This document shows positions 3,300-60,975 of a DNA stretch of 64,000 nt, piece by piece. The first letter of the stretch is position 1; each line of letters starts with the position of its first letter. The translations under genes were made by a program, and so were the position numbers. The DNA comes from Eledone cirrhosa (taxonomy: Eukaryota): the NCBI GenBank assembly GCA_964016885.1, contig OZ024740.1, positions 183,334,001 to 183,398,000 on the forward strand, read 5' to 3'. The notes beneath the pieces were generated by a model. The model was not told the DNA's origin. It saw only the letters and a list, made by a program, of their open reading frames with translations, and made no database searches.

Positions 3300-4165
<866 letters not shown>

Positions 4166-4392
4166 CGGGGTAACAAATAATAGTTATATGCAGTCCACTT
4201 AGGTGTAGTCCAATTATGGTATACCGGGTAGTGGATGATATCAACGCTTGGCTAAGTTTGACTCAACAAGGCGTTTTCATAGTGATGCTGCGAGTACGCT
4301 GTAATTCTTATGTTGTAAACACTTGGAGTAATAATAAATCAGGAAAGAAGATTGACACGGTTTGCTATACAAAAAAGGTTTTTAATCTCATT

Positions 4393-4498
4393 GCTGACAA
4401 TTGTTTCTCTGAACTGGTAGGTCTAGAGATCGCTATTCCCTTGTTTTCGCGTTACTCGATCGCCAATACAAAATTATAACCAGTCAGTTCATCGGAGC
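4393..4498 (-). ncRNA. Type I hammerhead-like motif (CCGAUGA core variant, long stem II)
   Basis: Reverse complement reads GCU-CCGAUGA-ACUGACUGGU...ACCAGUUCAGA-GAAAC-AAUU-GUC-AGC; stem I GCU/AGC, palindromic stem III ACAAUUGU. Confidence 0.6.
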
Positions 4499-5488
4499 TT
4501 GCGAGAATGAAGAGAATATACAGGCATGAAAGGAATATACAGGCTACTATATGAGGTAGTAATGGCATTCATTTAGAACAATAACAACAATATCAACAAT
4601 GCTAGCAATAAAATATTTGAGATAATCACAACATCATTTTAGGTGGGGAGTATAGTATATCTAAGATTTTAGCGTGTAAAACAAGCTGACATGAAGCAGA
4701 TGTATAAAATTGACATGTAAAGACTGTCGTAGGGTGTATATCAAGTGTAAAGATAAGCCGGTGTTTATAAACAATGTAGGTCAGGTGGCCGTAATATTCA
4801 GTTTTTATCTGACCGATGAAGCATTTATCACTGTAGTAGAAGTTGTGTGGTCTATATTAGATGAGAGTTCAGACTGTCTTTTCCATCCTCAATAACATAC
4901 ATGTAAAGGACAACACTATCAAAGCTAAATAATGGGCAAGTTAATACAGAGGTTAAGGATGTAATGTGTATACATATATATATATATACACACGCACGTG
5001 CACACAAACATATACATACACATCCATACACACTCATACCAATACATACAAAGAGAAAACATGCTGACAAGAGGAAGGTAAACATGCTGGCAAGAGGAAG
5101 GTAAAGTTCCATTGTAATAGTATTTTGAAATGTTCTTGGATTTAGGATCATGTGTTGACAGCAGCTGAGAAGAAATAAGTTTATGGGTTGATGAGGTACT
5201 TACAGACATTTGTGTGGTATAGAATTAAGAAGGCTAGAATGTACTTAATGAGTATATTTCTGTGGTGATTCATGCAGAGTAGTGGGTATCTTAGTTGAAA
5301 GCTATGTTATGTCGGTTCGATTCATGGAGGTTTGAATCTTATGAATTTAGTGCCAATTCTATGTCTGCAGAAGATAGATCTTTTTAACTTGTTGTTAAGT
5401 AGCCTTTTTACATTTTTAAGGATATACATTTAAATCCTGCAAAAACCCGCCAAACAACCCCACACTCGATGCCTTCGAGCTGGACCTT

Positions 5489-6652
5489 ATGAATATGATA
5501 AGTGAAACTAAATTCAAAAAAAGAACACATCACAACAAATTGCAAAAAGACATAAATACACTACTAAAAAAACTAAAAGACACTAACGGTATCATAGTAA
5601 AAGCAGACAAAACATCAAACGTATACTCTATGGACCTTAACACATACAATAATTTTATCCAGCGTGAACTACACAAAAAATACAAAAAAACAAATGAATC
5701 TACACTCACCAGCATTAACGTGGAGGGCCTCAGGATAGTAAATAAACTCGGAATTCCCGATAGGACCGAGCCTCTAACCCCGTGCAACCCAACATTTAAC
5801 CTGAAAGATCACAAAAATAATTTTGAAACAAACCCTACCATTAGATTAATATGCCCATCCCAGTCAGACATAGGCAAAATTAGCAAGAACATTCTAGATA
5901 GGGTAATCGCACAAATAAAGGGTAAACAAGAAATCATTTTATGGGGTAATACTAACGAGGCGATTGAATGGTTCAATAAAATACAAAATAGGGAGACTTG
6001 TAACTTCATACAATTTGATATAGACGACAACTATGCATCCATATCCCCAGCCACCCTAGATAAAGCGCTTATATTTGCCCAAAATAACTCCGATCTTACC
6101 CATGAGGAAATTGAAATAATAATAACGGCTAGAAGGACTAACATAAAATTTGAAAAAAGCTACTGGGTAAGAAAAGATAGGATAAACAGCTTCGATATAA
6201 CAATGGGATCAAGTGACTCTGCGCAAATCACATACATTGTGGGGCTATTCATAGCACACAACCTACATAAGGAATTCAGTAACCTCCAAGGAGGGATTTA
6301 TAGAGACGACACGCTATATATAGCTAAGAACTTAAACAACCAGAGCATGGAAGGATTAAGAAAAAACATTAGAACATTCTTCAAAAAACTAAGCCTAAGT
6401 ATTACCTACGAACTGAACCATAAGAAGGTAAACTTTCTAGATGTGACTCTAAATCTAAATACGGGATTAATGGAACCTTTCTACAAAAATAATGAAAATC
6501 TGGCCTACATTACTTATAACTCAAACCACCCCATATCCATAATCAGATCCATAGCACGTAGTATATCCCTTCGAATATCCCGCTTATCCTCAAACCTAGA
6601 AATCTTTAACGAACATGCTAACTCTTATAACGCAGCATTACGCACACATTAA
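5489..6652 (+). pseudogene. Penelope-like reverse transcriptase fragment, no endonuclease
   Basis: KADKT, LKDHKNNF..IRLICP, FIQFDI..YASI, FDITMGSSDSAQ, GIYRDD, VNFLDVTL and SNHP motifs; resembles the cnidarian-type (Hydra-like) PLE lineage; ends in TAA before any GIY-YIG domain. Confidence 0.85.
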
Positions 6653-7114
6653 TTCGAACACCATCAACATTCAACACCCACCATAGACTCTAATGCATTA
6701 ACATATTTTGCTTCAACTGCAGTATTTATTCATCTATACATTCATAATAGCTTTGCTTGTCTCCTTCTCATGTATATGACTTATGCAGTCACACTATCCA
6801 CACGCCTGCATATGATTTGTAATCGCACTCTTCCTTTCTCAATACTGCTTCCTGAATGCCTCTTTAATATTTGGACTATTCCCTTGTTTTAACTGTTGCA
6901 TGTATTCCACTCCGTGCTTTTGATTTTGATTTTAATTTTAATTTTGAATTTGAACTTGAATGTTTGTACAATTATTGTACAATTCTCGTAAAATATATGT
7001 CACATCCATTCCACCCTGTAAATACGAAACTGTTGCTCACAACATCAATTTATATGTATCTATATTATTGTTCAGTTGAATAGGAGGGTAATTATATGTG
7101 CAAACAATGATAAT

Positions 7115-7159
7115 GCTTCGATGATTCCAAACGAGAGTTTGGAAGAAACGTTTGTCAGC
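7115..7159 (+). ncRNA. Type I hammerhead-like motif (degenerate UCGAUGA core)
   Basis: GCU-UCGAUGA-UUCCAAAC-GAGA-GUUUGGAA-GAAAC-GUUU-GUC-AGC: perfect 8-bp stem II, GUC cleavage triplet, stem I GCU/AGC. Confidence 0.65.
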
Positions 7160-7424
7160 TATTAAATGATTTGAACACAACTTTGATAATTGTATAATTT
7201 AGTTATATTTATATATATATATTTCGTTTCTGAATTTGTTTAGCAAGATTCTTTATCTGAAATCGTGAGTTGAAACCGATATTGTTATACTTTGGGAGGG
7301 TCATGTTGCCAATAAGAAACACACGCACCAGTTGCTTTCACTTCAATTTATTATAATAAATTTATAAATTTATAAATTTCTGGTTGGTTGGTTGGTTCCA
7401 CAACGAGATAGTTGTTTATATATT

Positions 7425-7467
7425 GTCATAGTTCTTTCGTCACACACTCTGTGACCTCTTCAGTGAC
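7425..7467 (-). ncRNA. Minimal type I hammerhead ribozyme (family A, left arm)
   Basis: Exact reverse complement of 7771-7813. Confidence 0.8.
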
Positions 7468-7770
7468 TGGGGATTATTTTCTTTGTTTTTTTTTTTTGCC
7501 TCTCCTTTGTTCTGTCCTACGCCATTTTGTTTCTGTGTGTGTGTTGTGTGCTCAGTCTGCGCATGCGCCACATCCGGGTGTCTGTGTGTGTTTATGTTCA
7601 TTTATTTATTTGTTTATTTACATGTTACTGGTTAGTTGTTTGTTCTATGTGTGTGTGTGTTTTCATTTTGTCCTTAATTGAGCACACAACACACACACAG
7701 AAACAAAATGGCGTAGGACAGAACAAAGGAGAGGCAAAAAAAAACAAAAAAACAAAGAAAAGAATCCCCA

Positions 7771-7813
7771 GTCACTGAAGAGGTCACAGAGTGTGTGACG
7801 AAAGAACTATGAC
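7771..7813 (+). ncRNA. Minimal type I hammerhead ribozyme (family A, right arm)
   Basis: GUCA-CUGAAGA-G-GUCAC-AGAGUGU-GUGAC-GAAA-GAAC-UA-UGAC: stem I GUCA/UGAC, stem II GUCAC/GUGAC, very short stem III. Confidence 0.8.
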
Positions 7814-7951
7814 AATATATAAACAACTATCTGGTTGTGGAACCAACCAACCAACAAGAAATTTATAAATTTATAAATTTATTATAATAAATTGAAGTGA
7901 AAGCATCTGGTGCGTGTGTTTCTTATTGGCAACATGACCCTCCCAAAGTAT

Positions 7952-7987
<36 letters not shown>

Positions 7988-8101
7988 GTTTGAATATGTA
8001 TAATAAAGCCAAAACAATGCAGGTATGGACATAGAAAAAAGAATGGAATTGCAAAAGATATTGTTGACAATTCGTCTTTTACATTAGATTTACTTAAATG
8101 T

Positions 8102-8136
8102 CCTTAATTTTCGAGATAATATCTCTTCTTCAGAGG
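8102..8136 (-). ncRNA. Minimal hammerhead motif in the inverted pLTR
   Basis: Reverse complement CCU-CUGAAGA-A-GAGAUAUUAUCUC-GAAA-AUUA-AGG; the + copy at 10190-10221 has a mutated core (CUGUAGA) and a shortened loop II. Confidence 0.6.
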
Positions 8137-8206
8137 GAAATAAAGGTCTCAAACCAGCGTTCTAAATATCTTGCCAAGCCATGCTGACAGGAAATAGTAT
8201 AGAGCC

Positions 8207-9817
8207 ACATACAATAACCTAGCCTTTGAACACCTAAGCGACAGTGAATTATACACAGAGATCCCGGACATGACTGCAGCCCAGATCGAAAAACAGACCC
8301 ACTCCATTTGATTCGATATCTGTAGGAGAAGACAACTCCCAAATAAAGTTAAGCTCAACTACACCACTAGAAATAGCAGACTGCCCACTTTCTACCACCT
8401 CATCAAGACCCACAAGAATAGTACTAAGACGCAAATAAGACCCATCGTCTCTAGCATAGAAGGACCCCTATACCACATTTCCTGGCTCCTCTCCCAGGTC
8501 CTCGAGCCTCTACTCTCCACCTTTCCCGGGCATGTCAGTAGCTCCGACGAAGTTATACGTAGACTACATCAACTCCAGCCAGAACAACTTAAGCTAAATA
8601 AATACGCTTTTAGCCTCGACGTTGTCTCCCTCTACACTACAGTCCCCGCTCATCCAGCTGTCGATTTATTGACGGACTGCGTGGTCGCAGAGGACATCCA
8701 CTGCTACGGCCTCCACCTGACGGACATACACCAGCTTTTGTCCTTCACAGTAGACAACACATACTTCACCTTCCACCACCACACATACAGACAGACAACA
8801 GGATTATCCATGGGATCCAGCCTATCGGGCCTGCTGGCCATCACCTACATGAACCAGCTAGAATGCCGAGCCCTCAACACCTGCCATTCCCATGCCTTCT
8901 TCACCCGATATGTAGATGACATACTCATCCTTACATCATCCCGTGAGGAGGCAGATAAAATATACACAACATTCTCCAGCATGGACGCCAGAATAAAGTT
9001 CAGCATGGAACACCCCGATGACCGTGGATCCCTATCCCTACTGGACTTCCAACTCAGGGTAACAGAGGAAGGCAACATCCACACCTGCTTCTATATAAAA
9101 GCCGCCAGCAGGGACCTGTTGGTACATTTCAGATCGGCCCTCCCACTCGGTGCCAAGTTCGGATACATAAGGAACGAACTGGCACGTATCCGGAACAAAT
9201 GCACCGACGCTAGAGACCGAGACACACACACCACACATTTCCTGGAAGTACTCAAACTGAACGGATACACGACATCCACCACAAACCGTGCCAGAAAGAA
9301 CAGAGGACACCACACCCGAGGCACTAACACTTGCTTCCTGAACCTCCCACACTTCAGTGAAGAAACAACAACAGCCATCCGCAGAGCCATCAGACGAGAG
9401 GGACTAGATATCCAACTGGCCCACTCAGGTCCTTCTCTACGCAGACAGCTAACCAAAAGACACTCCACCAGACATGACAACTGCTGGAGACTAGCCAACT
9501 GCCCCATCAACGACACAGACCTATGCCACCAGGCTTACGTCGTATAAAGACTAGAGTGTGACAAATGCAACAACTTCTACGTAGGTAGCACCACCAGACC
9601 ACTCCACATAAGAATAAAAGAACACCCCAATACTAACGCTTCCTCATTTAAGAAACACCTAGTTAAATGCAAAAACACCGACAAAACCATAACAGTTAGG
9701 ATAGAAACTAAGGAAAGAAACCTCGGCAATCTTAGAATTAAGGAAGCACTAATTATAGATAAAACACAACCACCAATCAATAATAGACTAGAACTCAACA
9801 CCCATTTTATAACCTGA
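8207..9817 (+). pseudogene. PLE RT plus GIY-YIG endonuclease, single frame with two premature stops
   Basis: PTFYHLIKTHK..IRPIVSS, FSLDVVSLYT, QTTGLSMGSSLS, RYVDDIL, LLDF; past TAA 9545-9547 the frame continues RLECDKCNNFYVGSTTRPLHIRIKEH...IKEALII..PPIN to TGA 9815-9817; a second stop is at 8309-8311. Confidence 0.9.
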
Positions 9818-10402
9818 TAGGGCTTCTAGCCCCATATTTACACCCCCCACACACACACGCTTACACCTCCACTTATTCTCTCTCACACATACACACACAA
9901 AACCAGTTCTAACACCAGATAACACCTATCCCCCACATTTACGAATAGACTTATCTTCTCACACACACACACACTCACATACTTACACCTTCTTGCATTC
10001 TCCCACACACTTAAACAGGCATGTATATATTAAAAAAATAACCTAAACAAACCCCTTTTAAAGGGAGACTACTCTTTATCCACCTAATTTTAACTCTTTG
10101 ACATTAGAGATAGCACAGATACTCTATACTATTTCCTGTCAGCATCGCTTGGCAAGATATTTAGAACGCTGGTTTGAGACCTTTATTTCCCTCTGTAGAA
10201 GAGATATCTCGAAAATTAAGGACATTTAAGTAAATCTAAGGTAAAAGACGAATTGTCAACAATATCTTTTGCAATTGCATTCTTTTTTATATGTCCATAC
10301 CTGCATTGTTTTGGCTTTATTATACATATTCAAACGTTTATACCTCATTACACAATGCTTCAAGTGAACTATAACCTCCTCCTATATATATATATATATA
10401 TT

Positions 10403-10808
10403 TATTAATAAAAGGAATTCCAACTTTGTCTGATTTACTTGTTTTATTTGCAATCCTTTGAAATTATAATGATATTATAATGAAATAGTATGGTAGAATA
10501 TTAAATGTTAAGTGTTAATTGAAAAAGTACTTTCATGCTTTCGAAATCTACAGGTTCATATTCTGTGGTGACAGTCAAGTTTGGCATTTTCACGGTTGAA
10601 AATTGCAAACTTGACTGTCACCACAGAATATGACCCTGAAGATTGCGGAATCATGAAAGTACTTGTTGAATTAACACTTAACATTTAATATTCTACCCTA
10701 CTATTTCATTATAATATCATTATCATTTTAAAGGATTGGAAATAAAACGATTAAATCAGACAAAGTTAGAATTCCTTTTATTAATATAATCTTCTATACA
10801 CAACACCA

Positions 10809-10811
<3 letters not shown>
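10403..10811. mobile_element. Non-coding fold-back HHR element, family B (older, arms diverged)
   Basis: Palindrome 10403-10786 centred near 10592; arms 10520-10558 (-) and 10631-10669 (+) give consensus UGAAC-CUGAAGA-UUGCGAAAGCAU-GAAA-GUAC-UU-GUUCA; flanked by (TA)n. Confidence 0.75.
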
Positions 10812-10880
<69 letters not shown>

Positions 10881-10885
<5 letters not shown>

Positions 10886-11926
10886 AAGAATTAGTATATC
10901 TACCATCATATATATACAGATGCATACCTATGCTAGCTAATATATAGGTTTTGTCTTAGTAACTTTGTGGTTCAATGCAAGGGGATGCAGAACAATTATA
11001 TGAAAGACGTAAAATAAGAAAATTATAAAAAATAACTTACTAAAATTTCACTACAAATAATTAGTTTCTGAAAGGGAATAAACATGGTTTCCGAATGGAA
11101 CACATGGAGAAGGCCTTTCGTCATCAGGAAGTCTATTCTCAGCTAAGTTCCCAGGCAATGCGTGGACACAGGGAACTTATACAAAAATAATTCAGTGGAT
11201 AGAAAAAAGCAAGCGTAGACTAAATTCCAAGACATAGAAAAAATCACTGCCTACTTGGTCGGTGGCAAATTCAAAAGAATCAATCACGTGACATCGAGGT
11301 TAATCATTCGGAAACCACATTTATTTCCTTTCAAAAACTAATTAGTTGCAGTGAAATGTTAGTAAGTAAGTTAATTTTTATAATTTTCTTATTTTACGTC
11401 TTTCATATAATTGTTCTGCATCCCCTTGCATTGAACCACAAATTTACTACGACAAAACCTATATATTTGCTAGCATAGGTATGCATATGTATATATATGT
11501 TGGTAGATATACTAATTCTTTATAATTATCTCCAAATTATTTTGTTGAGCAAAAATTTGCCAAATCTGCTACTATAGTTCATAGTAATAGTTCGGCTACT
11601 GTCTTCTTTACACCCCACTCCTCACTGATTAACCTCGATGTCACGTGATTGATTCTTTTGAATTCGCCACCGACCAAGTAGGCAGTGATTTTTTTCAATG
11701 TCTTGGAATTTAGTCCACGCTTGCTTTTTTCCATCCACTGAATTATTTTTGTATAAGTTCCCTGTGTCCACGCATTGCCTGGGAACTTAGCTGAGAATAG
11801 ACTTCCTGATGACGAAAGGCCTTCTCCATGTGTTCCATTCGGAAACCATGTTATTCCCTTTCAGAAACTAATTAGTTGGAGTGAAATTTTAGTAAGTTAA
11901 TTTTTATAATTTTCTTACTTTACGTC

Positions 11927-11930
<4 letters not shown>
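10881..11930. mobile_element. Non-coding fold-back element, family C (unit about 531 bp, circularly permuted arms)
   Basis: Minus arm 10881-11306; plus arm 11307-11930 starts TTCGGAAACC and repeats it at 11838; CUGAUGA-CGAA..UUCG-GAAAC core at 11806-11853, stem I not evident; (TA)n flanks. Confidence 0.75.
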
Positions 11931-11958
<28 letters not shown>

Positions 11959-11961
<3 letters not shown>

Positions 11962-14029
11962 TATAGACATAGAATATTCGAAAATATTCTGTATGTTTAT
12001 AATAAACATTTTGAAGACCTAATCGCTATAGAATAGAATACGTCACGTATTAAAATTAGATTCTCGATAAAAGCAAGGGAAGTAATCTACGCGTTTCATT
12101 CTTGTTAGAATTCATCAGGACTACATATCCAGTGCTTTTATCGAGAATGACACAGCTAGAGACTTATAGAATACTTAGCTGTGTACTGGAACTGGTTTGA
12201 AAGAGCGGTTGCCGGTCCGGCAGAAATTAGAAATTGGAATAAATGCTCTGAAATAGCGATATATATGTGAGTATAGACATAGAATATTCGAAAATATTCT
12301 GTATGTTTATAATAAACATTTTGAAGACCTAATCGCTATAGAATAGAATACGTCACGTATTAAAATTAGATTCTCGATAAAAGCAAGGGAAGTAATCTAC
12401 GCGTTTCATTCTTGTTAGAATTCATCAGGACTACATATCCAGTGCTTTTATCGAGAATGACACAGCTAGAGACTTATAGAATACTTAGCTGTGTACTGGA
12501 ACTGGTTTGAAAGAGCGGTTGCCGGTCCGGCAGAAATTAGAAATTGGAATAAATGCTCTGAAATAGCGATATATATGTGAGTATAGACATAGAATATTCG
12601 AAAATATTCTGTATGTTTATAATAAACATTTTGAAGACCTAATCGCTATAGAATAGAATACGTCACGTATTAAAATTAGATTCTCGATCGATTAGGTCTT
12701 CAAAATGTTTATTATAAACATACAGAATATTTTCGAATATTCTATGTCTATACTCACATATATATCGCTATTTCAGAGCATTTATTCCAATTTCTAATTT
12801 CTGCCGGACCGGCAACCGCTCTTTCAAACCAGTTCCAGTACACAGCTAAGTATTCTATAAGTCTCTAGCTGTGTCATTCTCGATAAAAGCACTGGATATG
12901 TAGTCCTGATGAATTCTAACAAGAATGAAACGCGTAGATTACTTCCCTTGCTTTTATCGAGAATCTAATTTTAATACGTGACGTATTCTATTCTATAGCG
13001 ATTAGGTCTTCAAAATGTTTATTATAAACATACAGAATATTTTCGAATATTCTATGTCTATACTCACATATATATCGCTATTTCAGAGCATTTATTCCAA
13101 TTTCTAATTTCTGCCGGACCGGCAACCGCTCTTTCAAACCAGTTCCAGTACACAGCTAAGTATTCTATAAGTCTCTAGCTGTGTCATTCTCGATAAAAGC
13201 ACTGGATATGTAGTCCTGATGAATTCTAACAAGAATGAAACGCGTAGATTACTTCCCTTGCTTTTATCGAGAATCTAATTTTAATACGTGACGTATTCTA
13301 TTCTATAGCGATTAGGTCTTCAAAATGTTTATTATAAACATACAGAATATTTTCGAATATTCTATGTCTATACTCACATATATATCGCTATTTCAGAGCA
13401 TTTATTCCAATTTCTAATTTCTGCCGGACCGGCAACCGCTCTTTCAAACCAGTTCCAGTACACAGCTAAGTATTCTATAAGTCTCTAGCTGTGTCATTCT
13501 CGATAAAAGCACTGGATATGTAGTCCTGATGAATTCTAACAAGAATGAAACGCGTAGATTACTTCCCTTGCTTTTATCGAGAATCTAATTTTAATACGTG
13601 ACGTATTCTATTCTATAGCGATTAGGTCTTCAAAATGTTTATTATAAACATACAGAATATTTTCGAATATTCTATGTCTATACTCACATATATATCGCTA
13701 TTTCAGAGCATTTATTCCAATTTCTAATTTCTGCCGGACCGGCAACCGCTCTTTCAAACCAGTTCCAGTACACAGCTAAGTATTCTATAAGTCTCTAGCT
13801 GTGTCATTCTCGATAAAAGCACTGGATATGTAGTCCTGATGAATTCTAACAAGAATGAAACGCGTAGATTACTTCCCTTGCTTTTATCGAGAATCTAATT
13901 TTAATACGTGACGTATTCTATTCTATAGCGATTAGGTCTTCAAAATGTTTATTATAAACATACAGAATATTTTCGAATATTCTATGTCTATACTCACATA
14001 TATATCGCTATTTCAGAGCATTTATTCCA

Positions 14030-14030
<1 letters not shown>
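11959..14030. repeat. Inverted tandem array of 310-bp HHR-containing units (family D, retrozyme-like)
   Basis: Unit starts 11959, 12269, 12579 (period 310); inversion at 12688/12689; about 2.35 minus-sense plus 4.3 plus-sense units, identical by eye; (TA)n on both sides. Confidence 0.95.
12900..12942 (+). ncRNA. Type I hammerhead ribozyme (also at +310, +620, +930; two copies on - with cores at 12112-12118 and 12422-12428)
   Basis: GUAGUC-CUGAUGA-AUUCU-AACA-AGAAU-GAAA-CGCG-UA-GAUUAC; complete catalytic core, 6-bp stem I, 5-bp stem II, palindromic stem III ACGCGU, GUA cleavage site after 12936. Confidence 0.9.
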
Positions 14031-14102
<72 letters not shown>

Positions 14103-14107
14103 AATAT

Positions 14108-14207
14108 ATACTGGCGTGTATGATTGTGTATAGAAGATTATATTAATAAAAGGAATTCCAACTTTGGCTGATTTATTCGTTTTATTTCGAATAAATCAGT
14201 TGGAATT
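14108..14207 (-). mobile_element. 3' terminal fragment of family B element with a short local inversion
   Basis: Reverse complement of about 10740-10811; CTGATTTATTCG/CGAATAAATCAG hairpin; adjoins (TA)n(TG)n. Confidence 0.7.
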
Positions 14208-17447: not shown

Positions 17448-17552
17448 ATATATATATATATATATATATATGTAAAAGGTAAACAGAAATAACAACACAA
17501 TCGGTACAGTATATGGAAGGTATATATTAGGTTAACGCTTGATATAGCAGGG

Positions 17553-17588
17553 TCTTAACGTTTCGGACGCTAGTCCTTCAACAGAAGA
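17553..17588 (-). ncRNA. Minimal hammerhead motif, downstream pLTR (core mutated to CUGUUGA)
   Basis: Reverse complement UCUU-CUGUUGA-A-GGAC-UAGC-GUCC-GAAA-CG-UU-AAGA. Confidence 0.65.
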
Positions 17589-17966
17589 AAGAATGAGAAA
17601 TAAAATAGATTAAGGGGACGGGCAGGATGGAATTGGAAAAAAATGTCTTTAGATAAAAATAATAGGTCCATTCATGTTGACATCTCTTGCAAAACTGTTG
17701 GTGCTGGCGTTTTGTGTATGATTTGTTTTTTAGAAAAATGGATGATGGTGCGTGTCTACCTGAAATGGAAAAAAAACTGTTTTCTAAAAAGAGCTATATT
17801 TGAGCACGTGCGTAAGCAGGAGTGTCTCTGTGTGTTATTATACACACGAAGCTAAGAAGAGATATGTGTGTATATGTGAGTAAAAGAGTGCATGTGCATG
17901 TAAGTACGAAGCTATGAGCAAAGAGAAAGTGATAGGAATCTAGGGGTGTGATAATGGACGGGGGTA

Positions 17967-20560
17967 TTAGAGAAATTGGGGAGGTGAGTTGAGTCCAAGA
18001 GACGAATTGGACCCAAGACGGTGAATCAAACATTGTTCAGTCCTGGTGCGCGAGGCCTGTGATCCATGATGTAAAAGGACACCCAGGACTGAAACATATA
18101 GGGAAGAATGACCAGGAGAACAGAAATGAGAAGCGACGGAAGTATCCAAACCGAGTCGTATATCCCTCAAATGTTCGGCAAACCGGTTTGCCATACGGCG
18201 TCCTGTTTGTCCGATATATAAAGACCCGCAAAGGGAACACCGGAGGGCATAGGCAACGGGGGTGGATGAGCAGGTGAAAGAATGGCGGATACGGAAAGAC
18301 CAGTTAGGGCCTGTAAGAGTGGTGAGGGTGGAAATAAAGGGACAAGTGTTGCAGAGAGAACGGGAACAAGGATGAGAGCCAGGTGGTGTCGTGGGAGAGG
18401 ACGAAAAAGAACTATGAACCAGGAGGTCGCAGAGGTTTCGGGCGCGCTTAAAAGCAGTAGTTTGTGGGTTTGGAAAAAAAGCGAGAAATGACGGCGTCAG
18501 AAGAGCGGATACGGAAGGGACGGAGGATATGTCACTGGAGAGGTAGGGTGCTGGGGTGGTAGGTGAGAGTGAAAGGAACACGGGTGTTGGGAGAGCGGGG
18601 GTGAGGTGAGAGGCCTGGTGTGCGGTCTGTTTCACGGGCGTGGGTGAGAGTAGCTTGGATCAAGGTGCGGATATCCACGCTGTATGAAGCAGGAAGCCAT
18701 GCGATGGGAATGGGTTTCGAAATTGTCGTCCTGGCTACAGAGTCGATGAAGACGGAGGAATTGGGAATAGGCCATGGAGTGTTTGGTGTCAGTTGGATGG
18801 GAGGAGGTGAAGTAGAGATAAGATTGGGAGTCTGTTGGTTTAATGTAGATGGAAGTAGAGACGGTGTGGTGAGAGAGATTAATAGATAGAGAGATATCTA
18901 GAAAAGCGACAGAAGAATCAGAGACCGAGGCGGTGAAATTGAGAGCAGGATGGAAAGATTGGACAAAAGAAAGAAAACAGTCGAGCTGTTCTCGTGAATG
19001 GGAGGTGGCGATACAGTCGGCGATATAACGACCATATAGCTCAGGATTCGGTCCAGCGTACTGGGAGAAGATCTGGGCTTCGACGTAGCCACCAAACAAG
19101 TTGACATAGTTTGGACCCATTCTGGTTCCTATCGTTATCCCAGAGACCTGCTGGTAAAATTCACCCGAAAAGAAATCCATTAAGGGTGAGAACAAGCTCA
19201 GCCAGACGGAGAAGAGTGTTAATGCTGGGGTAAGGGGTAGGGCGTAAATCTAAAAAATGCTGGAGAGCGCGTAAGCCGTCATCATGAGGGATTACGGTAT
19301 AGAGAGAAATGATGTCCAGGGTAAAGAGAAGGCGGGGGGGGACCAGGAGGGAAGGAGAAAGAGTTGAAAAGTCTAAAGGCATGATTTGTATTGTGGATGT
19401 GGGAGGGGAGATTGCCGACCAACGGGGCGAGGATGGTGTCTAAATATGCAGAAATTATCTCGGTGGGGCAGTTGCACGCAGAAACGATAGGACGGCCAGG
19501 ATTATTTTGTTTGTGTATTTTGGGGAGGAAGTAGATGGTGGGTGTGCGAGGGGTGCGTACAATAAGGTTGGTGGCTGTGGGGGGTAGGTGAGAGGAGGAG
19601 ATGAGCTCGTGGATGGTGGAGGACATGAGTTGTTGGTAGCCAGGAGTGGGGTCGGTGGATAAAGGGCGGTAAAAAAGGTTATTGTGAAGCTGGCGGAGAG
19701 CCTCAGCCCTATAGAGGTCAGCGCTCCAAACCACCACACCGCCACCTTTGTCAGCGGGTTTGATGACAATGTCATCGCAACACCGTAGGTTGCGAACAGC
19801 GGAGAGCTCAGTTCGCGTGATGTTAGAGCGACGAGAATGCTAGTGGAAACGGAACCGATTCACAGTACGCCGGCAAACATCGACAAAGGAGTCGAGTGTG
19901 CTGTCCAATGTGATTGCCGGCGACTGAGACGAGTGAAGTCATCCGTCTGTGTTGATGATGGCGTGTCGTGAAAAAAACTTTCAGCTTTAAACGACGGAAG
20001 AACCCTTCAATATCGGCACATGTGCGGACCTCGTCGAAGGTAGATGTGGTGGTATAAAACGTAAACCACGGGCGATGAGGGAGCGCTCAGCTTCGGAGAA
20101 TGGTAGGTCCTGGGGTATGGTAACTACAGTGCAGGGATGTGAGGGACTGTAAGTGGCGGAAGCGGAGGGGTCAAGGTGGCTGGGCAAAGCGTGTGCAGAT
20201 ACAGTGGTAGGTGACGGGATAGAGGGGTTAGGGTTGGAGGTGATATGAGTATGGGTGGTGACAGCAGGCGGGGAGCGGAGAGAGTCGAGTTTATGGTTTT
20301 TTGCGGAAGTGAGGAAATTGAAAAGGAGGCGATTGAGGTAAAGGATGAATTGGAAAAGGGACTGGGCGAGGAAAAGGTGGGAATTTGAGGAGAGATGGAG
20401 GTAGGCCTTGGGGAGATCTCGGTCGAGAGAACGGATTTGGGTGAGAGTTGATCGAATGGTCGCCCGCATCAGCTGGCGAGAGGAGCGGGTAAGGATGGGT
20501 TCAGTGGTGGGAGCAGAGTAAGAGGTGGGGTGAAACTTGAGGCGGAAACCGTGGTGCATG
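17967..20560 (-). pseudogene. PLE RT plus Cys-rich linker plus GIY-YIG endonuclease, frameshifted
   Basis: IKPADKGG, PTIYFLPKIHK..PGRPIVSAC, LFTLDI.SLYT.IPH, YQQVSG..GTRMGP, RYIAD (YIDD mutated), FLDI, CSRSLCNTC linker, VAYALRCSLCGSLYIGQTGRRMANRFAEH. Confidence 0.9.
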
Positions 20561-21084
20561 AGGTGATGTTGGAGACAGCGACTTAAAAATGTTATGTGAC
20601 TGTTCTATAGTGTTTTGGTGAAGATGACGTTGGAGAGATGCAGTGAGGATTGGATGCATATAGGGGGAGAGGTTGGAGGAAGCGCTTGAGAGTAGAATGG
20701 AGCTGGCGGAGAAAAGATTTGAGATTAGGCATGTTGAAGGTACTAGGGTGGGAGTGAAAGATAGACGGATGAGAAGAAGAAGGTGGTGTAAGAAGATTGT
20801 AGTAGAGGAAAAGTGGTAGTGAGTCGTGGAATATTTAAATGCAAGAAGCAAAGAAAATTTCAAAGATACGAAAGATTTACTGGTGGAAGTTCAGGTGCAC
20901 TCCGGGCTGGTATCCAGTTTCGAGGTGAAAGTCCAATCTGAAAATCCAACGAATTTTGAGAGGTCATATAAGCGTTGATATATATATATATATGTATGTA
21001 GAAGGTAAACAGAAATAACAACACAATTGGTACAGTATATGGAAGGTATATATTAGGTTAACGCTTGATATAGCAGGAAGAGGG

Positions 21085-21120
21085 TTTTAACGTTTCGGAC
21101 GCTAGTCCTTCATCAGAAGA
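21085..21120 (-). ncRNA. Minimal hammerhead motif, upstream pLTR (intact core)
   Basis: Reverse complement UCUU-CUGAUGA-A-GGAC-UAGC-GUCC-GAAA-CG-UU-AAAA; one stem I mismatch. Confidence 0.7.
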
Positions 21121-21510
21121 AAGAATGAGAAATAAAATAGATTGAGGGGACTTGCGGGATGGAATTGGAAAAAATGTCTTTAGATAAAAATAATAGGTCC
21201 ATTTATGTTGAAATCTCTTACAAAACTGTTGGTGCAGGAATGATTGACAAGATCCCAGACCTTAGTTACCGAATAGGGTGGAACTTGTCATATCAAACCA
21301 AGGAAACAAAGTTTTCATTGGTCATTTTCACTGCCGAGAATATTTACCAGTCACAACTCATGGCATAAGGAGCAACATGAAATAAAGTGTCTTGCTTAAG
21401 AATATAAGGCATTCCCCAGTCTGAGAATCACTCGCCACCTAATGATTGCAAATCCCATTCTCTAATCACTAAATCACTTGCCTTTATGCACGCACACACA
21501 CACTCACACA

Positions 21511-34234: not shown

Positions 34235-35967
34235 CACATTATGAGAGACTGATGAATGTGGAGAATGAATAGGAGAGAGAGAAATTACCCCAGTAGATCC
34301 AACAGAGGGACCATCTATTGAGATTGACTAATATAGGGTACAAGAGGCAATTAAGGAAATGAAGAATGGTAAGGCTGCTGGAGTGTCGGGGATAGTTGCT
34401 GAGATGCTGAAGGCATCAGGAGAAGTAGGCACTAAAACAGTTGCACGCATCATTAATCAAGCTATATATGGTGGTGTCATACCCAAACTCTGGTGCAGCA
34501 GTATTCTCATAAATTGCTACAAAGGTAAAGGGGATACTCTAGAGAGGAGCAATTATAGGGGCATAAAGCTGATGGATCAGGTTATGAAAGTGGCAGAGAT
34601 GATATTAGAGCAACTGATTAGAGAAAGGGTCAAATTAGATGAGATACAGTTTGGTTTTGTGCCTCGGAAAAGTACAACAGATGCCCTCTTCTTAGTGAGG
34701 CAAGTACAAGAGAGGTTCTTAGCTTTTGTTGACCTAGAGATGGCCTTTGATAGGGTACCCCAATCTGTCATCTGGTGGTCCCTAAGGAAAACTAGGTGTA
34801 GAAGAATGGCTTGTGAGGACAGTGCAAGATATGTACAGGGGTGCTGTCAGTAAAGTGAGACTAGGAATGGAGTTTAGTGAGGAATTCCAGATACAAGTAG
34901 GTGTACATCAGGGTTCAGTCCTCAGCCCGCTCTTGTTCATTATAGTGATCCAAGCCAAAACAGAGGAGTTTTAGAATGGATGCCCATGGGAACTTCTCTA
35001 TACTGATGATCTGGTTCTTATAACAGAATCAGTTGAGGAGCTAGAGAATAAATTCTGGCTATGGAAACAGCAGTTGGAATCAAGAGGCCTGAGAGTGAAC
35101 ATAGCAAGACAAAAGTGTTGATAAGTAGAAGAGAGGACAATACTCCGATTCCATCAGGGACATGGCCATGTCCCTAAATTCCATAAAATGTATGCAATGC
35201 AGATCTTGGGTACATAACAGATGTAGTGGGATAGCAGGCAAACTAACAGGTAGGGAAAACTACGTATGCAGTAGATGTACAGGGAAAGTTGGCAGTAGTA
35301 ATCAGAGTGATAGACACATTTTTCCAATGCAGGTGGGTTCTATAGAAGTGGTTGATAGCTTCCGGTACCTAGGTGATCAGATTTGCATGGGAAGGGGTGT
35401 TCCGAGGCCATAGTATCTAGAATAAAGACGGGTTGGAAGAAGTTTATGGAGCTGTTTCCTCTGTTTACAAAGAAGGGTTTCTCCCTACATACGAAAGGAC
35501 GGTTATATGATGACTATGTGAGATGCACGATGCTGCATGGTAGAGAGACATGGGCAGCAGATACAGAGGATATGTAACGGTTGGAGAGAAATGAAGCTAG
35601 TATGCTCCATTAGATGTGCAATGTCAATGTGCATGAACAAACAAGCATGGACGAGTTGAGAAAGAAAATAGGTATAAGAAGGATAAGTCGTGGTGTGAAG
35701 GAGAGAAGGCTGAGATGGTATCGACATGTGATGTGCATGGAGGATGACTGCAGGGTAAAGAAGTGCCAAGAAATCCCAGTAGAAGAAAGACACAGTAGAG
35801 GTAGACCACAAAAAACATGGGCGGAGGTGGTGAGAGCAGACCTCAGATCGCTGAAACTCACCGAGGAGATGACGAAGGACTGTGACAAGTGGAGAGATGC
35901 TGTGCTAAATAGGACCCATCCAACCCTTGCAAGCAAGGAAAAGCGGATGTAAAGTGATGATGATGAT
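34235..35967 (+). mobile_element. 5'-truncated degenerate RTE LINE (RT, Cys-rich insert, short 3' end)
   Basis: MKNGKAAGVSGIVAEMLK, NYRGIKL, QFGFVP..STTDA, AFVDLE.AFDRVP, GVHQGSVLSP, LLYTDDL, RRLRWY.HV, RGRP.KTW; (GAT)n tail. Confidence 0.92.
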
Positions 35968-43036: not shown

Positions 43037-45352
43037 ATTCTTTTGGTTATATAATTTCACAAATTTTTTCCCAATAAAGGGAGAGTCGGTTTCTAACATA
43101 GACACAATACTCTCTCATTGGAATTTACACAACATCAACTAGGTAGATTATGTATGCATGCATGTGTAGATATGGATGTTATTGTATGTGTGGATGTGGA
43201 TGTTTTGAGTTGTATGTGTGCATGTGTATATGCTTTGCATCCGTACATGTGTATATGCAGTTATTAGATGCAACATTTTTGGAATGTTTTACATATTTTT
43301 ACTGTTCCATTAATGGATTGTACTTGTAGTTTCCTAACTAGTTGTGTTCTTTCTGTTCCTATGAAGCCTAGCTTCTCAAGATTTGTATTGAGGAAGTTAC
43401 TAACATACCCCAGTGCCCCAATAATCACAGGCATAAATCTGAAGGTGTAATCAGGGTGGAGTATCTGCAGATTTCTCATCAGTTCTGCATAAATATTCTC
43501 CTTTTCGTTAATCTTTGATATTATATTGGCAACTGCTGGGCAGCTAATTTCCACTAGTGTGCATGATTTCTTCTCCCTGTTCCATATAATATCTGGTCTG
43601 TTATGCCTGCATTTTATTGGTGTTTTTACTGGAACATTCCACTAGTACTCTTTCATATTATGTACATGGATGTCTTCCACATTGGTGTAGCTTTTAATGT
43701 GTTTATTATCGTGTCTATCTTTTTTACGAACTGCATTGTAAAGTGTTTTGGCTACTACATCATGCCTCATAGGTAGATAGTACCGCGATGACATCTTTGG
43801 ACAGCTGCTGATGACATGGGTGATATCCTCGATGTTAGTTCTGCAGAGTCTGCACTTGTTATCACATCTAGGTGTTTTGCCTGCATCCCTATATCTTTTG
43901 TAAATCAGGTATTTCATATTAATCTCCTGTTCTTGGATTGCAAAAGCATATCTTTCAAAGTGGGAACCAATATAGTGGTTGTTGGTCCAAGGTAGACTAC
44001 TTTCCTTATCTATATTACTCTCACTCTGGAGCTTCCTGGCAACATATCCATGCATGATTTTTTGCTGATAAGCATGCAGTTTTTCATCCATGGATTCACT
44101 GCGATACTGCTGAGCGACTTCCCTAGGTGTGAGTTTTTGATTATCAAACAGAATATCTCTCAAGGAATTCCTTCCCAACTCTCATGATCTTATCTGTTTC
44201 ATGCAGATAGACTTGCTCAAGAAATGGGCTCCCATGCTTCGAGGTTTGTAGATGTTGTCGGAGAGATATGATGTGACATTCAAATGTTGTCTGGACTGAT
44301 GTTAGGCCTCTGCCTCCCTGCTTACGTTTCAAGTAAAGACGGTCTATGTCACTGTTGATGTGGAAGTTTCCAGTGTTGTTTAGTATTTTTCGAGTTCCAA
44401 CATCAACTGCTCAGATTTCGTCTATCGTCCAATTGAGTATTCCAAACGTTGGTGTTAGGACAGGCACAGCAAACATATTATGAGCCAATGTTTTGTTTTG
44501 TGCAGAGAGTTCCAATGACCAGATCTTTCTTAATCAGGTGTAGTATTCCCTGGTTACGCATTCTTTATTACAGATACCATTATAGGATATGTTCTCATCT
44601 ATCCCCAGATATCTGTAGCAGTCCTCATCAGATATCGGTGAAACTGTTAGGCCATTGATGACAATGTTGCTAGATTGTGTTGTTGTTTTTACCCACTCTA
44701 CAGTCATCTATGAGCATTTATCTTGGCCAAACTCCATTCCTATATCCTTTGAGAACGTTGTAACCAGTCAAGATTTTTCTTCATCCCATCCATCTTCTTG
44801 GCATAGAGTTTCAGATCGTCTACAAAGAAATTATGGGTTAGGTTCGTACTTCTGTCCTCCTGTGAGCTAATGATGTATCCCTCACATTTCTTGAGCAGAA
44901 AGGACAAGGGGTTTAATGACAAGATGAATAATATCACAGAGAGACTGTCCCCCTGAAATATACCCCTGCAATATTTTATTTTATCAGTGAAAATAGAGTC
45001 CTCCCTCTCTGTCTTTAACCTTAGGATAGTAGCCCAAGAAGAAGACAACCTCTCTATGGCTCTGACAATAATATCTGGGACTTTAGCAAGTTGGAGGGCC
45101 TCTATAATCCAAGAGTGGGGAACAGAATAGAAAACTTTCCTATAGTCCAGCCAGAATGTAGCCATATTCCTCCTAAGTTGTCGCACCTCCGACATCGCAG
45201 TTTTGTTGATTAGGAGTTGTTCAGCACATCACCAAAACCGATTCTTTCCAGCTGCTTCTTCATCTGTGATGATGTTATTATTTTCACAGTGATCTTGGAG
45301 GAATAGTTTCAAGCAGGCTGTATACATCTTATACATCAGATTCTGGCATGCA
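43037..45352 (-). mobile_element. 5'-truncated R4/Dong-like LINE (RT, CCHC, RLE) bounded by (TACA)n
   Basis: IACQNLMYK, WLDYRKVFYSVPHSW, GIFQGDSLS, FFVDDLKLY, KQGGRGL, CRLC..EDITHVISSC..RHD, NRPDII..EISCP, PVIIGALG. Confidence 0.92.
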
Positions 45353-45412
45353 ATGTATGTATGTATGTATGTATGTATGTATGTATGTATGTATGTATGT
45401 ATGTATGTATGT
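45353..45412. repeat. (TATG)n microsatellite
   Basis: Direct reading. Confidence 0.95.
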
Positions 45413-45519
45413 TTTATTATTACTTTTTTTTTTTTTTTCCAATTCAATGATGTTCCAGAACAATATAAAAGAGATAATTGGCAATTTAGGTTCTGGAACA
45501 AAAAAGATCATTGGCAATA

Positions 45520-48500
45520 AGGGCAGGGGCCCCAGGTTATCACAGCCTGGGCCCGCTCGTCATCGTGCCATTGTAATAGAGCCAAACAAGGCATTTAGTC
45601 TTGGCTGCTGGAACGTACGGACGCTGCTTGACAGGGATTCCTTGGGGCGTCCTGAACGAAGGAGAGCTCTTGTTGCAAAGGAGCTTCGACGTTACAATCT
45701 TGACATCGTGGCTTTATCTGAGAATAGGCTAGCTGGAGATGGTCATCTTACGGAATTTTGTGGAGAATATACATTCTTCTGGAAAGGAAGAGATGAAGGA
45801 ACCAGAAGAGAGGCTGGGGTAGGATTTGCTGTTAAGACTGTGCTTGTGAACAAATTAGAAGAATTCCCAGTAGGGATTAGTGAGCGTCTTATGTCCATGA
45901 GAGTTCCGCTGGACAAGGGAAGATATGCTACCCTGGTGAGTGTGTATGCTCCAACTATGAGTTCTGTCGATGAGGAAAAGGTGTCCTTTTACCATGCCTT
46001 GAAAGGTGTTTTAAGAAATATCCCTCAGGCAGACAAAGTCATCGTGCTTGGTGACTTTAATGCTAGAGTGGGTAGGGATTTTAACACATGGAATGTAATC
46101 GGAAGGCATGGGGTGGGAAAGTGTAACAGCAATGGTATGCTCCTGCTGCAGATGTGTGAGGAGCTGGATCTGTGTGTTACCAACACCATGTTCCAACAAA
46201 AGAACAAATTCAAGACCACATGGATGCATCCTGCATCTAAGGATGGCATCTTTTGGACTACGTCCTAGTCAGGATGCGTGATAGACAGGTTGTGCAGTGT
46301 GTTCGTGTTCTTCGTGGAGCTGGACGGACCACTGCCTGGTACGCGCAAATTGAAACTAATCACTAAAATCCGGGCTCCTGGTGTTGCCCTGCCCAAAAGA
46401 TTGAATGCTCCTCGTCTTAAGGATAAAAATGTGAAGAGGACATTGGAAGAAGAGATGCAGGCTGCAGATATTGGTGAGGATTGGCCGACCCTTAAAAAGT
46501 CAGTTTATGGTGTAGGCAGGCGTGTTCTGGGATTGGCGCAGTGGAATCATCAGGACTGGTTTGATGAGAATGATGTTCATATAGAAGACTTGTTGGCTGA
46601 TAAGAGGCGTGCTCTGTCACGCTACTTGACGGCAAAACCACAGGAGAGGAATACATTGCATGAGGAACTCAGGGATGTAAAATCACGTGTTAGGCGGAGT
46701 CTTTCTCAGATGAAGGATCAGTGGTGGAGTGAGAAGGCTGGTGAGATACAAACGGCGTCTGATTCCAATAACACAAAGCTGTTGTACAGTCTCTTGCGTG
46801 AGGTTTATGGACCGTCTTCTTCTCTGGTGACACCGCTTCGCAGCAAGGATGGCAAAGAACTTCTTCGTGACTCACAAGGAATTCTACGAAGGTGGCGAGA
46901 GCACTTTGATGATCTTTTGAATCAGCCGTCTGTCGTCAGTGAAGATTTCCTCAATCTCATTCCAGAAAGTCCTGTGAAATTAGCTCTCGCAGAACCTCCG
47001 ACGCTTGTAGAGGTTGCAGTGGCTATTTCGAAGCTGAACAGTGGAAGATCTCCAGGTATGGATGGCATACATGCTGAGCTCCTACAATATGGTGATGAGA
47101 GACTCCTGCAACATCTTCACTCTTTGTTTGGCAGGATATGGACTAATGAATCCGTACCTGAGGACTGGAGAGATGCAGTAATGGTGGTCTTGTACAAGGG
47201 AAAGGGTAACAGGAACGATTGTGGGAACTACAGAGGTATATCATTGCTTTCTGTCGTAGGGAAAGTTTTATGTAGGGTGCTTCTGGACCGTCTGCTGACA
47301 CACATTGCAGATTGTGTTCTTACTGAAAGTCAATCTGGTTTTCGTGCTGGACGCGGCACTACTGATATGATCTTCTCAGCTAGACAGCTCCAGGAGAAGT
47401 GCATGGAACAAGGCTTGGATCTGTATCAGATTTTTGTTGATCTGACAAAAGCTTTCGATACTGTTAACAGAGATGCATTATGGAAAGTTCTCCAGAAACT
47501 TGGTTGCACTGATAAGTTCCTTGCTTTAGTTTGGTCTTTCCATGACGACATGAAGGCTTGGGTTAATGTCGGGGGTAACATGTCGGAGCCTATCTCAGTA
47601 AAAAATGGAGTGAAACAGGGGGATATTCCAGCACCGACCCTGTTTGCCATATACTTAGCAATGGTTTTCTGTATTGCACTCAGGAATTGCGAGCATAGTG
47701 TTTACATCCGATATCGAACCGCAGGCACCATATTTAACATCAGGCGCTTTGCTGCGAAGACAAAAGTATTTACATCAATCATAAGAGACCTCTTGTATGC
47801 AGATGATTGCGATCTTGTAGCGCACAAAGAGAGTGATATGCAGCACATTTTGAATGCATTTTCTGACGCTTGCACTGCCCTAGGTCTGACTGTCAGTCTC
47901 AAGAAAACCGTCGTCATGTACCAACTTGCCCCTGGTAAGCAGTACACTGAACCACACATCTATGTGTATGGCAAACGACTTGGAGTGGTTGATCAGTTTG
48001 TCTACCTGGGGAGCACTGTCAATCGATACGGCAACCTTGACAGTGAAATCTCACTTAGGATTAGGAAAGCAAGTGATGCTTTCGGAAAGCTAGAAAGGCG
48101 ACTCTGGGGTCGGCGAGACATATGCAGGAGGACAAAGGTAAACATGTACAGGGCATGTGTGCTCTCTTGTCTTCTTTATGCCTGCGAGACCTGGGTCACA
48201 TATCGACACCACCTTAAGCAATTGGAGCGTTTCCATCAGATGTGTCTCAGACGGATCCATGGCGTTCACTGGAGGGACCACATCAGTGATGTCGAGATTT
48301 TGGAGAGCTCTATGTGTGACAGTATAGAAGCTCTTGTGCTTAAGCAACAACTCCGTTGGAGTGGTCACCTTGCCAGGATGAAGGATTCTAGAATACCAAA
48401 GCAACTCTTTTATGGAGAGTTGGTTAAAGGAAAACGACCGCCACATAAACCAAAAAAATAGGTATATGGATTCCTTGAAAGCCTCTCTGAAAGACGCTAA

Positions 48501-57360: not shown

Positions 57361-58009
57361 GAATTTAATAGATAGAAGTCAGATATTTTGAAAAGGAGCA
57401 CAATGTTTGGTGAAAAATGTGATCTGAACATCAAACACTAACATTTAGAAATGATTGAGGATACAAGTTTGGCTGTGTGGGTAAGGTATTCACTTTATAG
57501 CCATAGAGCATCAGGTTCTATCCCACTGCATGGCATCTTAAATAAATGTTTTCTATTATAGTCCCAGAATGACCAATAACTTGGGAGTGAATTTAATAGT
57601 TTCAATCGGTACAATCTGTTGTATGTGTATGTGCATGTGTGTGCATGTATATGTTTATCTCCCTCTCTTTGTTTCACATTTGACACCACTAGTACTGATG
57701 GTAATATTTCTTTGTCTTGCATAAACAAAATTGCAGTGGCAATGGTTTGCTGAGTGAAGATCAGTAACATATTACAAAAAAATAAAATAAAAATAAAATA
57801 AACCCAAAAGCATGTGCAGCTTGACATTAGGAAGAGCACTGACCATATTATACTGCTTGAAAAAAATCTCATCCAACCTAAGCTAGAATGGAAAATTTTA
57901 ACATAAAATTGATGATGAGGAAGATAATAACGAAGACAGATTTCTGAAGGAAATTCCCAACTTCTTCTTACACTAGAAAAACCAATAAAGGAAATAACAT
58001 TAATAACAG

Positions 58010-60261: not shown

Positions 60262-60975
60262 ATTTATAATTTGCTTTTTAATTTATTTTGCAAGATTTCC
60301 TATCTGAAAACGCATGTTGAAACATATATTGCCAATAAAAAGACACAGACAAGATGCAATGTTCAGGCAAATCACAGAGGCAACAATTATTCAACTGCAA
60401 CCAAAATTAAACTGAAAACATGAGTGGAATAACAACATCACAACTAGTAAGTGAAGACAAAATGAAGACATACAGGCACACAAGAACCAAACTAACAAAA
60501 CAACTCAGACACACTCAGAACAAAAAAAACAACCAGTGACAAATAGATAAACACATAAATAAATAAAAACACAAACACACACCCGGATGTAACACATGCA
60601 CAAACTAAGGAGACACAAAACAAGATGGTGTAGGACAAAACAAGGGACACACAAAAAAAAAAAATAGTCACTGAGGAGGTCACAGAATTTGTGACAAAAG
60701 AGCTTTGACAATATATAAACAACCTTCTTGTTATAGAACCAACAAACCAGCCGGAAATTTATAATAAATTGAAGTGAAAACTAGCATGACCCTCCGAAAT
60801 TAGAACTATATATATATATATATATGAACATTTTCAGGACCTTGATGGCTGAGCTCCGGCCATTTCAACAGCTAGATCCAAACTGTATCGAGTACACTGG
60901 TGTGTTATGATTGAAGTGGAAGCCAACAGGTGTGTGTATTTTTATTGGAAACATGACCCTCCCAAATTATAACTA
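60262..60975. mobile_element. Diverged family A HHR element plus a second family A 3' fragment
   Basis: 60270-60330 matches 7240-7285 (inverted terminus); decayed HHR GUCA-CUGAGGA-GGUCAC..GUGAC-AAAA-GAGC-UU-UGAC at 60667-60709; CATGACCCTCC terminus before (TA)n at about 60790 and 60955. Confidence 0.75.

Follow-up and report, generated by a model that had tools for sequence, protein, structure and literature searches.

Paired short and tailed ends in a chain of Penelope-like and retrozyme insertions bounded by (TA)n in Eledone cirrhosa

How do inverted repeats with no obvious sequence in common come to lie end to end, each enclosed between TA microsatellites? The question is raised by a 64,000-nt stretch of the Eledone cirrhosa genome (GCA_964016885.1, contig OZ024740.1, positions 183,334,001 to 183,398,000; hereafter the window), in which seven TA tracts divide positions 4111–14053 into six units. 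An earlier note on this DNA, made from its letters alone, had described the units as TA-bounded insertions whose left arm is antisense and whose right arm is sense relative to a hammerhead ribozyme (HHR) core, and both the boundaries, mapped across the whole interval, and the polarity hold in all six. We assign units 1–4 to five Penelope-like element (PLE) families, A and B in unit 1 and E2, E3 and E4 in units 2, 3 and 4, and units 5 and 6 to non-coding retrozymes with repeats of about 527 nt (E5) and 310 nt (E6). The chain is probably a series of separate Penelope-type insertions into a TA microsatellite, made by paired two-site priming on both cut (TA)n strands. The most informative feature, absent from the earlier note, is that a two-armed insertion joins one short and one tailed 3′ end.

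Within a family, the 3′ end falls at one of two points, a short site or, further on, a tailed site. The tailed site lies past the short site by about 25 nt in E6, 35 nt in E4, 41 nt in E3, 57 nt in E2, 120 nt in E5, 140 nt in B and 170 nt in A, and tails in inverted units found de novo measure 24 to 179 nt. The short sites are AT-rich runs with similarity to the AT target. Among same-family two-armed insertions, the window's five included and nine pair calls with <75% coverage excluded, 124 of 127 carry one short and one tailed end. The three exceptions comprise one miscalled short end and two loci (L223 and L320) that we read as secondary inverted duplications including flank, because the same flank is inverted on both sides. 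Of 116 insertions, 59 have the short end at the left and 57 at the right, and all six window units follow the rule, chimeric unit 1 included. Because the queries used for A, E3 and E4 included the tail, which made the anchor ends of these families tailed by selection, the test was repeated with exact patterns on the 310-nt family. Genome-wide, this family has 50 tailed and 56 short ends. Where two of its ends lie on opposite strands no more than 15 kb apart, 34 of 34 pairs are head-to-head and short plus tailed, with none tail-to-tail, where chance would produce this pairing about half the time; two further neighbours lie on the same strand. A telomerase-like addition of TA at one end type was rejected: with a median of 34 nt at short ends and 40 nt at tailed ends, the TA runs do not differ between the two (n = 122, P = 0.39).

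The architecture extends well beyond the window. Four 50-kb blocks sampled blind (200 kb in total) contain 14 TA-bounded inverted units, which occupy about 5% of bases; in 12 of them one arm is flush to the TA tract and the other is offset by a tail, and none is flush at both ends. Targeted loci yielded 69 TA-bounded inverted units, 62 of them asymmetric and 45 unmatched by our family library. HHRs were scored with a structural descriptor that matched 37 times in the 200 kb of blind sequence and never in shuffles. They face outward in four blind units and inward in none, and in the targeted loci outward in 24, inward in none and in mixed orientation in one. Pooled over all 83 units, the scan gives 28 outward, 0 inward and 1 mixed, so the orientation is not random, in line with what the earlier note had expected. 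Its expectation of (TA)n enrichment at 3′ ends is likewise borne out: of 393 element 3′ ends, 342 have a TA tract beginning no more than 32 nt away, whereas the background rate is 2.7% for positions in the window and 11% for those in the fetched loci. At the other loci of the 310-nt family, 17 of 19 insertions run minus then plus and two are single-armed, with TA flanks throughout. A miniature inverted-repeat or other DNA transposon with terminal inverted repeats in TA was discarded as an identity, since 0 of the 83 units is flush at both ends. Separately, many small palindromic families of 150–300 bp outside the library (L044, L049, L239, L259, L303 and the blind blocks L330–L349) share the flush and tailed layout, some with a hammerhead near the centre.

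Where do the two arms stop at their 5′ ends? Over 116 insertions the short arm is the longer in 46, the tailed arm in 55, and the two are equal in 15. Among 77 non-tandem insertions, 28 have a short arm that extends 41–3286 nt further upstream than the tailed arm yet lacks the tail, and therefore neither arm can be a plain copy of the other. The 5′ ends in the youngest (310-nt) family are independent: offsets fit a uniform spread around the unit (Kolmogorov–Smirnov P = 0.31, n = 19), and 4 of 19 centres lie within 20 nt of symmetric, about 2.5 being expected by chance. Joining of the two truncated ends had been proposed earlier; at 17 of the 19 junctions (the two with inserted bases excluded) microhomology averages 1.53 nt against 0.76 nt in simulation (P = 0.009). 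Many junctions in older families contain bases that are inserted or do not align, some of which are copies made by local fold-back. Both arms of an insertion have a common haplotype in 19 of 19 cases, in 69 of 78 the arms diverge less from each other than from other copies (2.4% versus 3.9%), and doubleton variants are common to both arms at 1.5 versus 0.10 per kb. As for the template, a linear RNA ending at the HHR cut was rejected, because 5′ ends do not accumulate there in any of the families. Both kinds of end site are downstream of the ribozyme cut and the arms read through it, and therefore we infer an uncleaved, multimeric or re-circularised RNA.

These observations suggest the following route. 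A pair of PLE proteins would cut both strands of the self-complementary (TA)n, and both target 3′-OH ends would act as primers, on one RNA or on two sibling RNAs, at two internal sites flanking the tail. The two cDNAs would proceed toward the RNA 5′ end, each stopping independently, and their ends would be joined over 0–3 nt of microhomology or a short templated patch, leaving a TA tract on each side open to further insertion. The 310- and 527-nt retrozymes, which code for nothing, would borrow the PLE machinery, and their tandem arms would come from copying around circular or multimeric RNA, so that the arrays would be born as arrays. In vitro, a PLE protein, for which a dimer is predicted, cleaves the two strands and extends each, starting on uncleaved RNA at two internal sites bounding the tail (PMC11167929). 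The earlier note had placed PLEs and non-coding ribozyme repeats on one integration route, and both indeed have the same TA flanks and the same short and tailed ends; Penelope enzymes are likely the movers of the ribozyme parasites. More tentatively, and somewhat short of an even chance, PLE integration at large could be paired two-site priming by one dimer, with single arms as failed second arms and with retrozymes needing only the tail to be pasted as ready-made head-to-head concatemers from circular RNA.

A single priming followed by fold-back could also produce two opposed arms. The cDNA or an antisense template would self-prime at a palindrome and be copied back, the second arm would end at the short site by pairing with target TA, and unequal arms would reflect deletions at the palindrome centre. 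Self-priming from junction palindromes is argued in the available text of PMC3846280, and several of our observations fit it or otherwise weigh against paired priming, in addition to the tail-bearing queries described above. Variants common to both arms fit one RNA or source, but also fold-back or conversion, and fold-back patches occur at some junctions. The two arms of E4 insertions mostly share a stopping point (7 of 10 equal; 31 of 47 5′ ends within 20 nt), at E4 positions 2480–2499 of the L329 reference, about 25 nt past a TATA-like box and at an imperfect palindrome. This site is possibly the transcript start of the pseudo-long terminal repeat (pLTR), and run-off at a transcript start and fold-back account for a shared stop alike. 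Many small blind units are near-symmetric at the centre, which fold-back explains equally well, and the AT-rich short sites could pair with the target. Pairing is near-strict where two arms exist, yet not every insertion has two: of 393 ends, 240 are paired and 153 lack a detected partner arm, a count that is only approximately de-duplicated and may overlook very short arms, and the PLE at 17472–21245 of the window has no inverted arm. One chimera (L297, 996–3070) joins an E2 short end to a B-like short end, the tails have no common fold (z from +0.5 to −4.1), and the start site reported in PMC11167929 is equal between strands, so strict pairing is not predicted by it. Against fold-back, the 28 of 77 longer, tail-less short arms would need deletions of up to 3.3 kb in the tailed arm, the short and tailed types are balanced in length, and near-symmetric centres in the youngest family are close to the chance figure. 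The independent 5′ ends and the extent of the short arms therefore favour two primings over fold-back of one cDNA, which we regard as unlikely. The earlier proposal of two oppositely primed cDNAs on (TA)n nicked on both strands is the best reading.

Two further accounts concern what happens after insertion or between insertions. Retrozyme arrays might be made in place, from a PLE terminal piece that is amplified locally and undergoes unequal crossover, as put forward in the available text of a preprint (10.64898/2026.07.22.740005). Copies per arm do vary, from <1 to about 13, crossover can alter array length, and DNA cannot separate linear multimers from circles as templates. Such an origin is nonetheless very improbable given that copies of the 310-nt unit dispersed over at least four chromosomes are 99–100% identical, that each insertion has its own short end, tailed end and junction with both arms usually tandem, and that the unit has no frame above 59 codons and no match to the five PLE families. 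Alternatively, two opposite insertions in one TA tract followed by deletion, a later hairpin rearrangement, or artefacts of long-read assembly could explain unit 1, L297 and the flank-inclusive palindromes L223 and L320. Independent insertions predict mixed families, tail-to-tail pairs and random end types; what we find is 127 same-family pairs versus 2 credible chimeras among 6 cross-family calls, the other four having been discarded for a TA tract, gap or end-to-end adjacency between members, and, in the 310-nt family, no tail-to-tail arrangement among 34 opposite-strand neighbours. Arms of older copies differ by up to 11%, unlike read fold-backs. As a general account this explanation has the least to recommend it of all, and it is already contradicted by the same-family pairing and the 34 of 34 result.

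If paired priming leaves TA on both sides, do chains then grow on the regenerated targets? The earlier note had held that they do. TA is indeed kept on both sides, and an insertion of the 310-nt family (L040) has two empty paralogues with a single TA run of about 20 nt, the filled site having TA runs of 64 and 32 nt. This was the one clean case in a search for empty sites among the fetched loci, other rows being self-matches or chance neighbours. In the targeted loci 29 of 1201 TA tracts have element ends on both sides against 18 expected, and in the blind blocks 0 of 231 against 0.85 expected. Together, one empty site and 29 versus 18 tracts argue weakly for chain growth, and strong chaining is not shown.

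The chain itself begins with a (TA)n tract at 4111–4159. Unit 1 comprises a left arm at 4163–5428 (−), the 3′ end of Hydra-like family A with its tailed (long) end; a middle part at 5429–6642 (+), a family A reverse transcriptase (RT) fragment (open frame 5420–6652) inverted with respect to the left arm; and a right arm at 6643–7206 (+), the 3′ end of the second Hydra-like PLE, family B, with a short end. Comparison of unit 1 (4165–7210) with itself found no inverted repeat, so the inverted arms that had been described for all six units are present, by self-alignment, in units 2–6. Unit 1 is a chimera of families A and B, with both joins blunt or sharing ≤2 nt, and may have arisen by a template jump from B to A or by deletion between neighbours.

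Beyond the tract at 7210–7222, unit 2 is built from truncated arms of autonomous family E2, the left at 7223–7680 (−) with the tailed end (about 57 nt) and the right at 7679–7959 (+) with the short end; 7279–7554 matches 7679–7959 in inversion at 97% identity. The tract at 7956–7984 separates it from unit 3, whose left arm at 7981–8204 (−) is an E3 pLTR with a short end and whose right arm at 8203–10383 (+) contains a 5′-truncated RT, a stop, a GIY-YIG domain and a pLTR before the tailed end (about 41 nt). The inverted match is 7981–8204 with 10122–10342 (96% identity), and the stop separates the RT at 8312–9544 (Pfam RVT_1, E = 1.6e-14) from GIY-YIG at 9548–9814 (E = 2.1e-5). After the tract at 10383–10401, unit 4 consists of truncated arms of autonomous family E4 at 10403–10592 (−, short end) and 10592–10816 (+, tailed end, about 35 nt), with an inverted repeat spanning 10403–10786 at 91% identity.

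Unit 5 lies between the tracts at 10812–10885 and 11931–11958. Its arms of 527-nt non-coding retrozyme are at 10886–11306 (−, tailed end, about 120 nt) and 11305–11935 (+, short end), and 10882–11306 matches 11305–11935 in inversion at 92–97% identity. Unit 6 has 2.4 copies of the 310-nt non-coding retrozyme in its left arm (11949–12688, −, short end) and 4.3 copies in its right arm (12689–14031, +), where the tailed end lies about 25 nt past the short site; the arms are 99–100% identical in inversion. On its right, TA occupies 14030–14053 of a (TA)12(TG)23 tract at 14030–14099, and a seventh chain member, a single-armed E4-family fragment with a tailed end, follows at 14102–14187 (−).

HHR cores that pass the descriptor lie at 4495 (−), 7463 (−), 7775 (+) and 8133 (−) in units 1–3 and at 11806 (+), 12118 (−), 12428 (−), 12906 (+), 13216 (+), 13526 (+) and 13836 (+) in units 5 and 6. 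The core at 4495, in the left arm of unit 1, is a variant, and the right arm contains a degenerate core at 7118 (+) that reads TCGATGA. Mutated cores reading CTGTAGA are present at 10193 (+) in unit 3 and in the left copy of unit 4, and at 10636 (+) and 11127 (−) the core motif matched and the full descriptor failed. Rfam gave only weak HH9 matches on unit 6 (23 bits versus a gathering score of 52) and no hammerhead match in units 1–5; its microRNA matches were dismissed as microsatellite artefacts.

For the families behind the arms, we used as references natural long copies from the same 3.0-Gb genome. Both Pfam RVT_1 and GIY-YIG are found in E3, the RT followed by a C-terminal GIY-YIG. In E4 GIY-YIG is detected (E = 1.3e-6) with RVT_1 under the Pfam cut-off, and in B GIY-YIG falls slightly under the cut-off. 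Pfam gave no relevant match in A and E2, which were assigned by visible RT and YIG motifs; an E2 frame matches the E3 RT (blastp, E = 8e-13). By this combination of an RT with a C-terminal GIY-YIG, the families of units 1–4 are predicted endonuclease-positive (EN+) PLEs. Natural copies of A, B, E2 and E3 have the direct terminal repeats expected of pLTRs, and none were seen in the E4 copies fetched. Descriptor matches are confined to the sense strand in A, B, E2 and E3, whose pLTRs would thus contain type I hammerheads, as predicted ribozymes; E4 has an HHR core that fails the descriptor. Family A (L240) has all three of the motifs RWK, DKT and CxCX5C and inserts in (TA)n, and family B has CxCX5C alone of the three (one copy checked). 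These motifs alone place A and B, as a putative assignment, in the Hydra clade. The HHR core in both (L240 and L259) reads CCGAUGA (U4C), also a predicted ribozyme.

The earlier note had divided the chain into autonomous PLEs and several non-coding parasites. Non-coding status applies only to units 5 and 6. The truncated arms of units 2 and 4 belong to autonomous PLE families and look non-coding because they are short, RT and nuclease frames being present in the same families elsewhere. Units 5 and 6 are, judged by their sequence, non-LTR retrozymes: tandem units with periods of 310 and about 527 nt, one descriptor HHR per unit, and longest stop-free frames of 59 and 68 codons, respectively. 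The monomers are strongly self-paired (circular fold z −4.6 and −6.2 versus 30 shuffles; 57% paired), and comparison of the 310-nt unit with the five PLE families found no match beyond each family's own repeats.

How much of this is new? Head-to-head arms, a one-sided tail and a (TA)n bias are known for PLEs from the available text of PMC3846280 and PMC8557442, the former proposing self-priming on an antisense template. Canonical EN+ PLE units as described there have the same inverted, 5′-truncated copy, most frequently head-to-head with a tail at one end, the same HHR in the pLTR and, in several clades, a preference for (TA)n. The inverted copy is there called 'often' present or 'optional', the tail is 30–40 bp and the junction palindromic, whereas here pairing is near-strict, tails range from 24 to 179 nt and the 5′ ends of the two arms are mostly independent. 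With the Hydra clade (available text of PMC8557442), family A shares RWK, DKT, CxCX5C and (TA)n and family B shares CxCX5C; the CCGAUGA cores of A and B differ from CUGAUGA. The Poseidon PAc system in vitro (available text of PMC11167929) has the same cleavage and extension of both strands, two tail-bounding starts, uncleaved RNA and AT-rich target. That text gives neither an inverted-arm model nor a strand bias in the start; here each site is used once per insertion, and the short sites have AT similarity to the target.

The arrangement also recalls a better-known retroelement. In twin priming of LINE-1 (long interspersed nuclear element 1), cDNAs primed from each of two target strands are linked head-to-head through microhomology; the second priming takes place at an internal site that varies, and the 3′ end is present only once. 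In the present case the two primings would fall at fixed sites close to the 3′ terminus.

Retrozymes, and the proposal that PLEs help them, are described in the available texts of PMC7229834, PMC7761336 and 10.64898/2026.07.22.740005. Animal non-LTR retrozymes (PMC7229834 and the preprint) are likewise low-GC non-coding tandems with a type I HHR per unit and a proposed PLE mobiliser. Neither main text uses 'inverted' or 'orientation' for the arrays, which here form two head-to-head blocks with PLE short and tailed ends; those retrozymes are mostly 170–400 nt, and the 527-nt unit is longer. In the literature searched, with supplements and subscription papers outside its scope, we found no strict pairing, no containment test of the arms and no head-to-head retrozyme arrays, nor a match for retrozyme combined with head-to-head; Fig. 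S9 of PMC7229834 and Figs S1–S2 of PMC11167929 may bear on this novelty. What we describe is a genome-wide feature of known PLE architecture, to which a sharper end rule and the retrozyme link are added. The origin of tandem and inverted PLE insertions is called an open question in the accessible part of PMC8557442, and in that of PMC7229834 the mobiliser of animal retrozymes is only proposed. PLEs are the sister group of telomerase RT, and a countable end rule makes their insertion mechanism testable. Common to five PLE families and two retrozymes, the rule can be put directly to the existing in vitro system as a prediction, and it supplies a genomic footprint tying retrozymes to PLE enzymes. 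With 14 units in 200 kb, the process appears to shape much of the genome.

The 310-nt monomer (window 12689–12998) also has matches among public runs, 20 of which, from 18 organisms and 17 studies, hold 42–83% of its words. Among four runs assembled, X4 and X5 each gave one closed 310-nt contig with 2 differences at a depth of 26–34, in which circle and tandem array are indistinguishable, and in run X1 the summed depth of the monomer is near 4e5. No RNA holder was found among the public runs listed for the monomer. Its presence in these runs may stem from horizontal transfer, from close relatives or from an abundant RNA that cross-contaminated them.

Elsewhere in the window, 17472–21245 holds a PLE on the minus strand with a pLTR-open reading frame-pLTR layout, an HHR core at 21116 and TA at its 3′ end. 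An older, diverged two-armed copy of the E2 family lies at 60266–60978, with its tailed end on the left and its short end on the right. Long frames at 45273–48461, 55486–57378 and 34332–34853 resemble LINE endonuclease and RT, as judged by eye from their translations.

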